Positions 50,314-54,954 of a stretch of DNA of 64,000 nt are shown here, one piece after another. The translations under genes and the position numbers were made by a program. Source of the DNA: Dictyostelium discoideum. Taxonomy: Eukaryota. The stretch is taken from contig CM000151.3 of assembly GCA_000004695.1 (NCBI GenBank), forward strand, positions 7,584,001 to 7,648,000, read 5' to 3'. The first letter of the stretch is position 1, and every line of letters begins with the position of its first letter. The notes under the pieces were generated by a model. It was not told the origin of the DNA. It was given only the letters and a program-made list of their open reading frames with translations, and made no database searches.

Positions 50314-53093
50314 TTATTGTATGATAGTACTTTTAACTTCACTTTGATTTTCATTTTCATTTTGATTTTCTTTATTATCATTAAAAATTAATGGTTTTAT
50401 AGTTGAATCATTTGTAAAAGCAATTGAATAAACATCAGAATAATAATCTACCAAATAAATTTCAATACCTTCTTTAATGAAATCTGGAATTTCTTCCAAT
50501 TGTTTTTTATTCTCTTTTGGAATGATAATGGTTTTAATGGATTCCCTTTTAGCCAAAACTATTTTTTCAACAATACCAGATACACCAATGACCTTTCCAG
50601 TTAGACTAACTTCACCTACCATAGCAAGATCAGGTTTAACCAATTTACCAGTTGCCAATGATAATAATGATGAAACGATTGTAATACCAGCACTTGAGAT
50701 ATCTTTTTGAGTTGAACCATCTGGAGCATGAATATGAATTGAATTCTTGAGGAAATAATCATTTGAGGCATCCACTTTCAAAAGGAAATCCTTAACATAA
50801 CTATAGGATATATCAATGGATTCTCTCATTACCAAACCGAGTGAACCGGTTGTTGTTACGGTTGGACCATTGGTAAATCTATCCAAAGCGCTTTCAATAT
50901 GAATTAAACTACCACCTAAACCCATAACAATGCCTGGTTTTTGTTTTTGGAATAAACGACTTGATGGATATTTGATAGGACCCACATATTGTTCCAAATT
51001 GTCTGGTGTTATAATTACACTTTGTTCCATACCCATCGAGAGTTTATATGCCATCTTTCTGAATATTTTATCAATGAATTTCTTTAAATTTCTAACACCC
51101 GCCTCCCTACAATAGAGTTCGCAAAGCTTCTTAATTGCCTCTGGTGTGAATTGCAATTGCTCCTCGGAGATACCGGTTTCCTTACGTACCAATGGAAGGA
51201 GGTAACGTTTTGCAATCTCCATTTGTTCAGATTGAATATAGCCATTCAATGTCATAACTTCCATTCTATCCAATAGTGGAGCTGGTATTGAATCGGCATC
51301 ATTGGCAGTACAAATGAAAAGTACCCTTGAAAGATCATAAGGTACATCCAAATAGTAATCCACGAAATTCTTATTCTGTTGTGGGTCCAATACTTCCAAA
51401 AGTGCTGAATTTGGGTCACCTTGTGAAGAACGAGAGATCTTGTCAATCTCGTCGATTAGAATAACGGGATTTGAAGTTTTAACGGTTTTCAAAGCTTGAA
51501 TGATTTTACCTGGCATCGATGCTACATAAGTACGACGATGTCCTTTAATCTCTGAAACATCGGATAAACCACCCACTGAAATACGATGGAATTGACGACC
51601 CAATGCATTTGCTATCGATTTACCAACTGATGTCTTACCGGTACCCGGTGGTCCCACCAATAGAATCACTTTACCCCCAATGGAACCTCTCAATTTACCA
51701 ACTGCAATAAAAGTTTGAATCATTTCTTTAATATCTTTTAAACCATAATGATCTCTATCTAATATCTCTTTAACCTTTGAAATGTCGAAATTATCATTTG
51801 TGTATACATTCCATGGTAACAATGTCATCCAATCCAAATAATTTCTAGAGGTATTATATTCTGATGAATTTGATTCACAACTTGATAACTTATCCATCTC
51901 CTCTTTAAAAACTTGTAAGATTTGTTTATCCATTACGGCAATCTCTTTCCATCTACTATTAAATTTATTCTTTATTGTCTCTTTTTCATCCAAATCAATT
52001 CCCAACTCCTTTCTAATTAATTTCATTTGTTCGGTTAAAAAATATTTTTTTTGTTGTGCCATTGTTTTTTCTTCTAATTGTCTAACATATAAAAATAAAA
52101 AAAATAAAAATATTAATTTTTTGTTACTCTGCTTTTTTTTCAAAAATTAAAACATATTAATATTTACTTTTCAATTGAAAAATTGAAATCAAAAACTTCA
52201 CATTTTTTAACAAGCATTGATAAAACCATATTTAATTTCTCTTCTAAACTTTTACATTCTAATAGTTTTTGATATTCACTTGGTGAAGAGATACACAATG
52301 GACCAATTGAATTTAGTAAACTTGAATCATCCATTTTAAATATTGGTAACATACAAATTTGTTTTAAATGTTGAGCAAAACTGGAATCTTGATATCTATT
52401 GATAGCACTATAAATACATTTTACCAATTGAAGTCTTAATGCTCTAACGGTCAAAGAATCACCTAGTTCACTATATTCATGTGGTTCAATTGAAACTTTT
52501 AAATATTTACTTGTTGGTATTTGTGGTACAACTGGTGTAGTTATTGGTGTTATTGATGTTGATGGTGTTGTTGTTGTTGTTGTTGTTGAATCTGATGTAT
52601 CATTTTTTGATTCAGTAATTTCAACTAAATTTGAATTATTATTATCATGATCATTTGAAACACCAGTAATTTCAATTATTGGGCCACCACCTAATACGAA
52701 ATAACCTTGTGTTCGACAGACTGTTGCCAACATACCAACTTTATGAATTTTTGATAGATCAGGTGTGCCATGGGAAAAGGTTGTAAAATTTGATTTTGGT
52801 TTTGATGGTGGTTTAGATTTTGATGCCTCTTGCGATTTCAATTCCTCCATATGTACTTCCCTTTCAGCATCAGAAATTAAAAATAACCCGAAATGAGTTG
52901 GTGATCCCATCTCCCTATACTCTGCTTCTGATAATGTGAGTTGTACATATGATCCGTAAAATACTACATAATCAGTTATTGGTAGTGCTATAACCTGTTT
53001 GGGAATATATGACGCTAATGATGCTGGTGATGATGGTGATGGTAATGGTGGTGGTGGTGGTGGCAGTGGGGATGGTAGTGACGAAGCTGCACT
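50314..53093 (-). CDS. mitochondrial-type Lon protease (LONP1 ortholog), 3' two exons (53093..52168, 52081..50314); N-terminal exon(s) not resolved
   Basis: Colinear with human LONP1: [21 protein letters not shown] (N-domain LPLIAITRNPVFP...), [17 protein letters not shown], the NYLDWMT motif, Walker [28 protein letters not shown], the sensor [11 protein letters not shown], and the protease-domain [55 protein letters not shown]. The intron runs GTAAAT (52167) ... atatgttag (AG 52083/52082), phase 2+1. In frame, the upstream exon is closed by TAG at 53096-53094. Further upstream, a different frame stays open through K/S-rich sequence and an (AAT)64 tract (53393-53583). Confidence 0.8.
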
Positions 53094-53392
53094 CTACACT
53101 GCATTAACACCACCCCCCACTCTTGCTACTACTTCTACTTTTACTATTTAATTTTTCTTTTTTCTGTTTTTGAACTTTCTTTGAAACATTTTCTTCTTCA
53201 GTATCTATCCCTTTATCTGTAGCTCTACTTTTTAATAACTGATTTAAATTTTTTGTTTTTACTTTATATTTTTTATTTAATTGATTTCCTGTGGAAGTAT
53301 TATTGGTATATATTTTATTTAAAATTTTATTTGTATTTTTTTTTTTATTATTTATTTTATTTATTTTATCATTTCCATCATTATCATTATCA

Positions 53393-53583
53393 TTATTATT
53401 ATTATTATTATTATTATTATTATTATTATTATTATTATTATTATTATTATTATTATTATTATTATTATTATTATTATTATTATTATTATTATTATTATTA
53501 TTATTATTATTATTATTATTATTATTATTATTATTATTATTATTATTATTATTATTATTATTATTATTATTATTATTATTATT
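53393..53583. repeat. (ATT)n/(AAT)n microsatellite, about 64 perfect copies
   Basis: 191 bp of pure att. On the minus strand, in the frame open upstream of the Lon exon, it reads poly-Asn. Confidence 0.95.
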
Positions 53584-54954
53584 GGTATTTGAAAAAGTCG
53601 AATATGATTTTAAAAATTCTTTTGGTTTATATATATAATTTACATAGGTTATTGTATTTGTTGTTGAAAAAGGGATTAAAGTGTTTGTTGGATTTTAACC
53701 AAGTAAATTTAACATTTTCCGTTTTTTTTTTTTTTTTTTTTTTTTTGGATTTGGTTTTTTTTATTTGGATTTGGTTTTTTTTTTTTTTTTTTTTTTTGAA
53801 AAGAAATTTAATTAAAAAAAAAAAAAAATTTTAATTTTAAATTAAATTTGAAGATGAAAATATAAGTTTATTTTATTTTTTTTTTATTTTTTTTTTTGTT
53901 TTCACATCAAAATTTTTTTTTTTTTTTTTTTTTTCTCATTAATCATTTTTTTTTATATTAAATATTATTTAAACTCTTAATTAAATTATTTTTTATTTTT
54001 ATATTTTTTATATTTCGAAATATAAATAAATATTTATTTATTTTTTCAAAAAAATTTTTAAATTTTTTCTTTTATTAATTTTTATTTGTATTTGGGAGTT
54101 TATTTCAATCAAAACTGAAGTTCGAGCGACCATTTTTTTATTTTTTTGAAAAAAAAAAAAAAATTAAAAAAAAATTAAAAATTTGACGAATTTTTTTTTT
54201 TTTTTTTAATTTTATTTTTTTTTTTTTTTTTATTTTTTTTCTTTTTTTTTTTTTTCAATTTTTTTTTCAATAAGTTGTATACATAAAGTATGTGTATTTT
54301 TTTTTTTTTTTGTGATACGCTATGAAAAGAGCGAGGGAGAGAGATTAGTGTATGTTATAGGATCACATGTCAAGCTATTGGTTATAGAAAAAGAAATTGA
54401 AAAATAATAATAAATAAATAAATAAAAAAACAATCAACATCTCATATAAAAAAAAAAGATAAATACCATCATAAATCCAAAAAAACAATTATCAACACAT
54501 CCTCAGCAATGAAAATAAAATAACTGGTTTTTTTTTTTTTTTTTTTTTAAAAATAAAAAAAAAGTCCATCATTTTATTTTATAAAACAAATCAATATTGA
54601 ACAAACATAATAAATGATTGCCACCACAACTTCACAATGAAATCAAAAAAAATTTTTATAAAAAAAAAAAAAATAAAAAAAATAAAATAAAACAAAATAA
54701 AAATAATAATAATAATAATAACACATTAATAATAACAATCAATAGCTTAAAACACATACAAAAATCTCTCACTCTCTTCGCTGGTAATTTTTTTTTTTTT
54801 TTTTTTTTTTTTTTTTGATATTTATTTCTGAAAAAAAAAAAAATAAAATAAAAAAAAAAAAAATTTTTTAAAAAAAAAAAAAAAAGAAAAAAAGAGAAAA
54901 GTAAAAGAAATATTAATTATTTATTTTATTATTAAAATATAGTTAATATTAAAA

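Follow-up and report, generated by a model that had tools for sequence, protein, structure and literature searches.

Upstream of the annotated start of a Lon protease gene of Dictyostelium discoideum lie some 800 nucleotides (nt) that look like coding sequence and cannot be read through into the protease. The gene, LONM2, is located in a 64,000-nt stretch of the AX4 genome (GCA_000004695.1, contig CM000151.3, positions 7,584,001 to 7,648,000), hereafter the window; coordinates are positions in the whole window, and the features of the gene are on its minus strand. The product read from the ATG at 52910 and spliced across an 86-nt intron has 836 amino acids (aa) and was identified by exact-sequence look-up as XP_642688.1 of D. 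discoideum AX4 (UniProt Q550C8, LONM2_DICDI), which the databases name 'Lon protease homolog, mitochondrial 2' and 'peptidase S16, Lon protease family protein'. A full-text literature search found no paper on the LONM2 gene. The UniProt record is silent on the 800 nt upstream, which we read as an N-terminal extension that has been disabled; the start given in the record falls within the Lon N-domain. Our sequence comparisons make it probable that this upstream segment is the decayed 5' coding part of LONM2 itself, and that the gene is now truncated at its N-terminus but constrained. A partial loss of 5' coding sequence with a shift to an internal start is a kind of event already known, and here it concerns a known gene.

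Reading frames upstream of the annotated start

A preliminary description of this DNA had found that the Lon N-domain frame is closed by a TAG, with no ATG between that stop and the N-domain. Translation bears out both points: the frame is open for 61 codons upstream of ATG 52910, as far as TAG 53096-53094, no ATG, GTG or TTG occurs in these codons, and the first such codon in frame is ATG 52910-52908 itself, within the N-domain. A second frame is indeed open further upstream, but it measures 588 nt (196 codons, 53694-53107) and not, as had been stated, more than 600 nt; it likewise contains no ATG, GTG or TTG. The sole in-frame ATG for it is at 53715, which is the only frame-0 ATG upstream of 52910, and translation from there is cut off after MLNLLG by TAA 53697-53695, a point missed in the preliminary description. 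The perfect (AAT)64 tract ascribed to the second frame is present, as is the coding-like composition of the region, with a G+C fraction of 0.22-0.31 at 53100-53300 versus 0.05-0.15 in intergenic DNA. The interval GTAAAA...TGCAG (53144-53087) is 58 nt long and GC-rich as described, with 47% G+C versus 12% in the real intron of the gene. Of the two positions given for a G6/C6 run, the one at 53113-53118 holds the only such run, whereas there is none at 53059-53064, where we find only a plus-strand GGGG at 53068-53071.

Between 53715 and 52910 the minus strand carries 11 ATG triplets, each opening an upstream open reading frame (uORF) of 1-29 codons. If the ancestral promoter were still in use, the mRNA leader would be about 800 nt long and heavily laden with uORFs.

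Intact orthologues in close relatives

The 90% cluster of Q550C8 includes two longer proteins, KAM9965891.1 (1059 aa) and KAM9964400.1 (1066 aa), from the assemblies GCA_054859385.1 and GCA_054859355.1, both labelled D. discoideum. We compared their whole loci (L001 and L002, respectively) with window positions 47400-56850. Both are syntenic with the window, with the same neighbour genes and with the intron in the same position as in AX4, and their proteins are 95.7-95.8% identical to AX4 LONM2 over the 836 common residues. In the relatives, however, exon 1 is single and uninterrupted, and it encodes 213-218 extra residues: the presequence, which is basic, then a linker rich in N/K and the initial strands of the Lon N-domain. 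Both proteins start MFKLLGLNPTKRLIPFSTTNTITYVNYIYKPKEFLKSYSTSSNNNNDNDND and run unbroken via SKSGSGGGVNAVESGSSSLPSP into the N-domain, with only four Asn at the site of the (AAT)64 tract, whereas AX4 has two stops and a frameshift. Since the DNA alignment displays base-for-base homology between the upstream frame of AX4 and this N-terminal extension, we take the frame to be a relic of the gene's own extension.

This comparison also vindicates three suspicions voiced in the preliminary description. The relatives' intact extension implies that the obvious, annotated start is not the ancestral one, and the K/S/N-rich upstream frame is relevant to Lon, being homologous to that extension. A presequence-bearing N-terminus is missing as well: the first 15 residues of the relatives contain 3 K/R and no D/E, and likewise those of the Heterostelium orthologue (MIRRLLLNRS...).

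The two relatives were found solely through the exact-sequence cluster look-up. A homology search with the N-domain frame returned no proteins and omitted the query's own 90% cluster (representative KAM9965891.1), so that on its own it had wrongly implied an N-domain without relatives. Intergenic DNA of the two loci diverges by about 9% from that of the window and by 3.7% between the loci themselves; in the Lon gene, synonymous divergence (dS) from the window is 0.13-0.15. Distances of this size suggest that the two assemblies represent sister lineages or cryptic species and not strains of the AX4 type; strictly speaking, they probably do not belong to one species with AX4.

Beyond the D. discoideum group, the nearest orthologue is P0005 (EukProt gene1399-1615_t, 896 aa). 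Its model begins only 38 residues before the N-domain and has an acidic N-terminus (MPPPMVSSAGAMAEDGDF...); either the gene model is truncated, or presequence loss has occurred repeatedly in this Lon subfamily. The orthologue of Heterostelium begins with a basic presequence of the classical kind, after which come an N-rich linker and a K/E-rich one.

Disabling differences in AX4

Relative to the two intact genes, AX4 carries three disabling lesions, all of them upstream of ATG 52910 and within 620 nt, while the remaining 836 codons (2.5 kb) have none. Two are nonsense substitutions, and the other lies in the G6 run inside a GGT/G-rich microrepeat, where the relatives read AGTGGGAGTGGTGGTGGTGTT and AX4 reads AGTGGGGGGTGGTGTT (Table 2). 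The 5-nt deletion at this site is the only indel of a length other than a multiple of 3 in the 3.3-kb coding alignment. The preliminary proposal of an indel error was thus right about the indel, but the intact orthologues identify it as a 5-nt deletion and not as a homopolymer miscount. A single-base change or homopolymer error at the G6 run was considered as a means of joining the frames and discarded, since the Lon frame would still run into TAG 53096-53094 further downstream. On paper the frames can be joined by two single-base insertions (frame 0 to 1 to 2), but the relatives display a different and simpler history.

Within the first 45 nt, 7 differences between AX4 and the relatives replace all three basic residues (K3N, K11N and R12T), and the first 15 residues of the AX4 relic contain no K/R. 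The N-terminus of the annotated protein, Met-GSPTHFGLFLISDAER, is acidic, with 6 D/E in its first 30 residues. A cleavable basic presequence in frame with the protease, as in mitochondrial matrix Lon proteases of the LONP1/Pim1 type, is absent from AX4.

Divergence and selection

The segment-wise divergence is given in Table 1. When the two relatives are compared with each other, the extension shows constraint against the background of intergenic DNA (1.1% vs 3.7%, p = 0.003), and the share of differences that fall in the extension is 3.5-fold greater in the comparison with AX4 (odds ratio 3.5, p = 0.01). At ATG 52910 the divergence of AX4 from the relatives drops from about 9% upstream to about 5% downstream (p = 0.001-0.008). 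For AX4 against the relatives, the ratio of nonsynonymous to synonymous divergence (dN/dS, Nei-Gojobori) amounts to 0.54-0.85 for the codons before the Met and to 0.05 for exon 2 (dS 0.13-0.15).

Table 1. Percentage differences by segment of the LONM2 locus
Segment	AX4 vs relatives	L001 vs L002
Intergenic DNA	9.2-9.3%	3.7%
Extension (ATG to TAG)	8.5-9.3%	1.1%
TAG to Met 52910	8.7-10.5%	2.3%
Rest of exon 1	4.7-5.4%	0.65%
Exon 2	3.1-3.4%	0.96%

If exon 2 had been neutral on the AX4 branch for as long as the extension seems to have been, a pairwise ratio of about 0.5 would be expected; the value of 0.05 implies that the ATPase-protease part remained under strong selection while the extension drifted. 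Because the AAA+ ATPase and Ser-Lys protease modules are under such purifying selection, LONM2 does not appear to be a dying pseudogene. The 836 codons contain no stop or frameshift, and the protein has been detected in AX2, so that the locus differs from a whole-gene pseudogene in these respects also. The two nonsense substitutions and the neutral-rate divergence of the whole segment, which stand beside the indel, argue for evolutionary decay rather than sequencing error.

We propose the following history. The alignments show that the ancestor of this lineage made its Lon from one long exon, which started at the ATG now found at 53715 and encoded a basic N-terminus resembling a presequence, next a linker rich in Asn and in Lys/Ser, and then a complete N-domain. 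In the AX4 lineage, the coding function of the 5' part would have been lost through the stop at codon 7, the frameshifting 5-nt deletion and the second stop just before the N-domain, with K3, K11 and R12 being replaced. The relic segment would then have drifted at the neutral rate, the AAT microsatellite expanding from 4 to 64 copies. Translation presumably now begins at a pre-existing internal Met, ATG 52910, and the putative 836-aa product would be an ATP-dependent protease, probably still active, in which substrate capture by the N-domain is impaired or altered.

Consequences for the N-domain and the catalytic modules

With the 61 relic codons included, the match to the LON substrate-binding domain (PF02190) extends over profile positions 3-200 and scores 29.0 bits (cut-off 28.7), whereas the annotated 836-aa protein matches only positions 101-200 with 17.9 bits and falls under the cut-off. 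In terms of the profile match, a LON N-domain is encoded in the DNA, but its first ~30 residues are outside the translatable open reading frame (ORF). The AlphaFold model of exon 1 translated from the TAG has a mean predicted local distance difference test score (pLDDT) of 80.8 and a predicted template modelling score (pTM) of 0.73. Ahead of Met62, which is the annotated start, it places a strand at Q33-I39 (52977-52997), a strand at Y49-Q51 (52941-52949) and a helix at E56-E61 (52911-52928), a block with pLDDT of 84-94. A fold search matches the model to LonA N-domain crystal structures (7cra, 7cr9, 3ljc and 6ihg, E of 1e-8 to 1e-10; 7cra and 3ljc at 1e-9 to 1e-10); a PDB sequence search with exon 1 gave only low-complexity noise. 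The annotated start Met is itself a conserved internal residue, found as YREMGSP in the relatives and as YKRMGQP in Heterostelium. We infer from the model that, along with presequence and linker, the AX4 protein would be missing the initial strand-strand-helix of its N-lobe.

The catalytic modules are readily recognized. The AAA+ module matches PF00004 (E = 5.5e-28) and PF22667 (Lon_lid, E = 1.2e-17) and contains the Walker A and Walker B motifs GPPGTGKT and ILIDEIDK, and the Lon_C domain matches PF05362 (E = 1.1e-52). The Ser of KDISSAG and the Lys of GIVEK fall in the same alignment columns as the Ser of PSAG and the Lys of xEK in the orthologues; we take these columns to contain the Ser-Lys dyad by way of S679 and K722 of E. 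coli Lon. The protease motifs (window 50314-50800) are atypical in AX4 and in both relatives, with QKDISSAG in place of PKDGPSAG and SGIVEK in place of GGIxEK. All three also have a 5-residue deletion in the GLGWSENGG loop compared with other dictyostelid orthologues; the dN/dS of the exon is still 0.05.

Expression and mitochondrial fractionation

Q550C8 has been quantified in AX2 by tandem mass tag (TMT) proteomics, with values of 103.4 in the lysate, 78.8 in crude mitochondria and 74.7 in pure mitochondria. In these fractionation data its relative enrichment (RER) in purified mitochondria is 0.72, versus the authors' mitochondrial cut-off of 0.343 (bioRxiv 10.1101/2021.11.08.467494, Table S2). 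The protein is thus made in AX2 and co-purifies with mitochondria. Since the search database had only the 836-aa model, peptides of the relic could not have shown up. The presence of Q550C8 with mitochondria could be due to a targeting signal inside the protein, to a peripheral association or to a mistake in the reference.

Alternative explanations

The main rival to a decayed 5' segment attributes the lesions to faults in the reference assembly or to mutations private to the sequenced stock, and supposes that living D. discoideum makes a full-length Lon of ~1100-1250 aa, complete with presequence and N64 tract. We consider this unlikely. A presequence would account for the mitochondrial behaviour in AX2, and the region is bordered by a 192-nt perfect microsatellite and the GGT/G-rich microrepeat, both of them difficult to sequence. 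An assembly error would, however, have to produce ~40 scattered substitutions besides three independent disabling differences, two of them substitutions, that are crowded into one short segment. That whole segment diverges from the relatives at the intergenic rate, yet it is constrained between them; with 7 of the first 45 nt changed and the basic residues gone, even a 'repaired' AX4 N-terminus would be unlike a presequence. The Logan genomic contig L003, from an independent run (SRR28564542), contains the 86-nt intron of LONM2 and is 100% identical to the window over the shared 600 nt, which speaks for the local sequence quality. Assembly error is therefore probably not the account of the lesions.

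The other alternatives accept the sequence and read it differently. Initiation at a non-AUG codon downstream of TAG 53094 (e.g. CTG 53066 or ATA 52991) would give a complete or near-complete N-domain without a presequence. The 61 codons in question are still open, score as the beginning of PF02190 and fold confidently in the model, and in-frame near-cognates exist, of which ATA 52991 combines a purine at -3 with G at +4. This stretch nevertheless diverges by 8.7-10.5%, the intergenic rate, with dN/dS of 0.54-0.85, and 61 open codons are unremarkable at 37-51% G+C. Only CTG 53066 and ATT 53006 precede the first strand, and both are without a purine at -3 and without G at +4; ATA 52991, the sole near-cognate in good context, sits within that strand and would not restore a complete N-domain. 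We regard such a start as quite improbable. An unusual short intron, one of the preliminary suggestions, has even less to recommend it and seems very improbable to us. As a newly evolved intron, the 58-nt GTAAAA...TGCAG interval would remove the frameshift and the TAG together; it has GT..AG ends, its length is 1 mod 3 as required for joining both frames, and its CAG acceptor is specific to AX4 (GGAT in the relatives). Its G+C content is not that of an AT-rich Dictyostelium intron, however, the homologous interval is plain coding sequence within the uninterrupted exon 1 of both relatives, and splicing would leave a frame with no start codon, as the only ATG hits TAA at codon 7 and the 196 open codons offer no ATG, GTG or TTG. 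The notion of a separate upstream gene, here for an Asn-rich protein, can draw on a 588-nt open frame with coding-like G+C, but that frame has no start codon and is, from end to end, a residue-for-residue homologue of the extension that this Lon has in the relatives; we give it next to no credence. An exon far upstream spliced to 53093 gains no support: the intergenic DNA aligns throughout with that of the relatives, and the only ATG-led island in AX4 (54131) is not ATG there.

Several observations weigh against the decay of the 5' segment. The lesions in AX4/AX2 are known from this one sequence: look-ups for independent records across them (the 248-aa exon-1 ORF, the relic frame from the repeat edge and a 50-aa plus-strand ORF) found none on record, and contig L003 ends in an (AAC)n tract at 52587, short of the lesions. 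Mitochondrial fractionation is unexpected for a protein with an acidic N-terminus and no presequence, and the 11 upstream ATGs would hamper scanning if the old promoter were still used. A high dN/dS (0.73-0.81) is seen in the part of exon 1 that has been kept as well, so that rapid evolution is not peculiar to the relic; for this part there is weak evidence of extra relaxation (p = 0.04). When amino-acid differences were polarised with P0005 and Heterostelium, exon 1 gave 6 vs 4 with 13 unresolved, the retained coding sequence thus showing no surplus of changes on the AX4 branch. Exon 2 gave 2 vs 2 with most sites unresolved, the distant outgroups being uninformative. In view of this lack of an AX4-branch excess, the timing of the decay follows only from the segment-wise divergence.

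Comparison with known systems

AX4 LONM2 shares the AAA+ module and the Ser-Lys dyad of Lon_C with the mitochondrial LonA proteases (human LONP1, yeast Pim1 and D. discoideum LONM1, Q54YV4); the third part of their architecture, the N-domain, is encoded in the AX4 DNA, with its first ~30 residues outside the translatable ORF. Unlike these, the AX4 product has no presequence and no first strand-strand-helix of the N-lobe, and it departs from the usual protease motifs (KDISSAG for KDGPSAG, SGIVEK for GGIxEK). As in unitary pseudogenes and in N-terminal truncation by loss of an ancestral start, nonsense and frameshift lesions in once-coding DNA were followed by neutral drift. In contrast to unitary pseudogenes, the lesions are confined to the first 620 nt, while the remaining 2.5 kb is intact and the catalytic part has a dN/dS of 0.05.

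The engineered LonA of Meiothermus taiwanensis without its N-domain ('AAAP') matches the wild type in ATPase and peptidase activity and is able to degrade casein, whereas it does not degrade a thermally unfolded Ig2 domain (eLife 2021, PMC8087443). The AX4 protein would resemble it in being a LonA without a functional N-domain, AAAP keeping its ATPase and peptidase and degrading disordered substrates; it differs in that most of the N-domain sequence (~250 residues) is retained and only ~30 residues of the fold are lost. By analogy, AAAP is a plausible functional counterpart of the AX4 protein, which would fit the tight constraint on exon 2 beside a fast-evolving retained exon 1.

Features of the locus and its surroundings

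Table 2. Positions of the features of the LONM2 locus, with the upstream elements named according to the proposed decay
Feature	Position	Strand	Remarks
Putative relic of the ancestral start codon (ATG, MLNLLG*)	53713..53715	-	Aligned to the ATG of KAM9965891.1 and KAM9964400.1 (MFKLLGL...)
Lesion 1: nonsense TAA at codon 7; TTA (Leu) in both relatives	53695..53697	-	DNA alignment and translation
Putative relic of the N-terminal extension: remainder of the former presequence, N-rich tract, K/S/E-rich linker; 196 open codons	53107..53694	-	Collinear with residues 8 to ~160 of the relatives
Perfect (AAT)64 tract; (AAT)4 in relatives	53392..53583	-	DNA alignment
Lesion 2: G6 run with the junction of the 5-nt deletion and an adjacent A>G; frame shifted	53113..53118	-	DNA alignment
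TAA closing the shifted relic frame (...SKSGGWC*)	53104..53106	-	Translation
Lesion 3: nonsense TAG in the Lon frame; GAG (Glu) in both relatives	53094..53096	-	DNA alignment
Putative 61-codon relic: P/S-rich linker and first Lon N-domain elements; no start codon precedes	52911..53093	-	
Start codon of the annotated 836-aa protein	52908..52910	-	Context gagATGg; exact-sequence look-up, alignment and context scan
Annotated coding part of exon 1: truncated Lon N-domain and long helix	52168..52910	-	
Single intron, 86 nt, GT..AG, 12% GC	52082..52167	-	Intron at the same position in relatives
Exon 2: AAA+ module, lid and Lon_C protease domain, stop codon included	50314..52081	-	Pfam PF00004, PF22667, PF05362

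In the intergenic DNA between the Lon gene and a plus-strand gene at 54955, two GC-richer islands (window 54095-54135 and 54305-54375) are conserved with the relatives amid A/T-homopolymer DNA. Their sequences are CTCGAACTTCAGTTTTGATTGAAA and CATGTGATCCTATAACATACACTAATCTCTC...TTTTCATAGCGTATCAC, without a match in Rfam or among tRNAs; the Rfam and tRNA scans of 52000-56000 gave no match at all. These islands may be promoter elements common to the divergent gene pair. Long homopolymeric codon tracts also occur in neighbouring ORFs, with a run of ~42 Gln in a 240-aa ORF (window 48373-49095, minus strand) and an (ATT)n tract in a poly-Ile frame (window 55502-55780, plus strand); the region is generally rich in trinucleotide repeats.

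Implications

If the upstream segment has decayed as proposed, an annotation puzzle in the genome of a model organism is settled: the 836-aa model of LONM2 is probably the best reading of the AX4 sequence, with its start inside the N-domain, and the upstream 'ORF' should be annotated as a relic rather than as an exon, an intron or a gene. The name 'mitochondrial Lon 2' should then not be taken literally for the laboratory strain, as the presequence has been lost, even though the protein is found together with mitochondria on purification. The locus would also be an example of an AAT microsatellite that has grown 16-fold once freed from coding constraint. AX4 and its relatives would constitute a natural pair of truncated and intact alleles for the role of the N-terminal extension and the N-lobe in eukaryotic Lon.

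A further possibility, which we offer only tentatively, is that the AX4 lineage possesses a LonA paralogue that has lost its presequence and part of its N-lobe, is under strong purifying selection (dN/dS 0.05) and is still found with mitochondria. If this is true, the protein would either enter mitochondria independently of a presequence, by an internal signal, or have acquired a new role at or outside the organelle with an altered choice of substrates, and the close lineages with the canonical form would provide a natural pair for Lon targeting and N-domain function.

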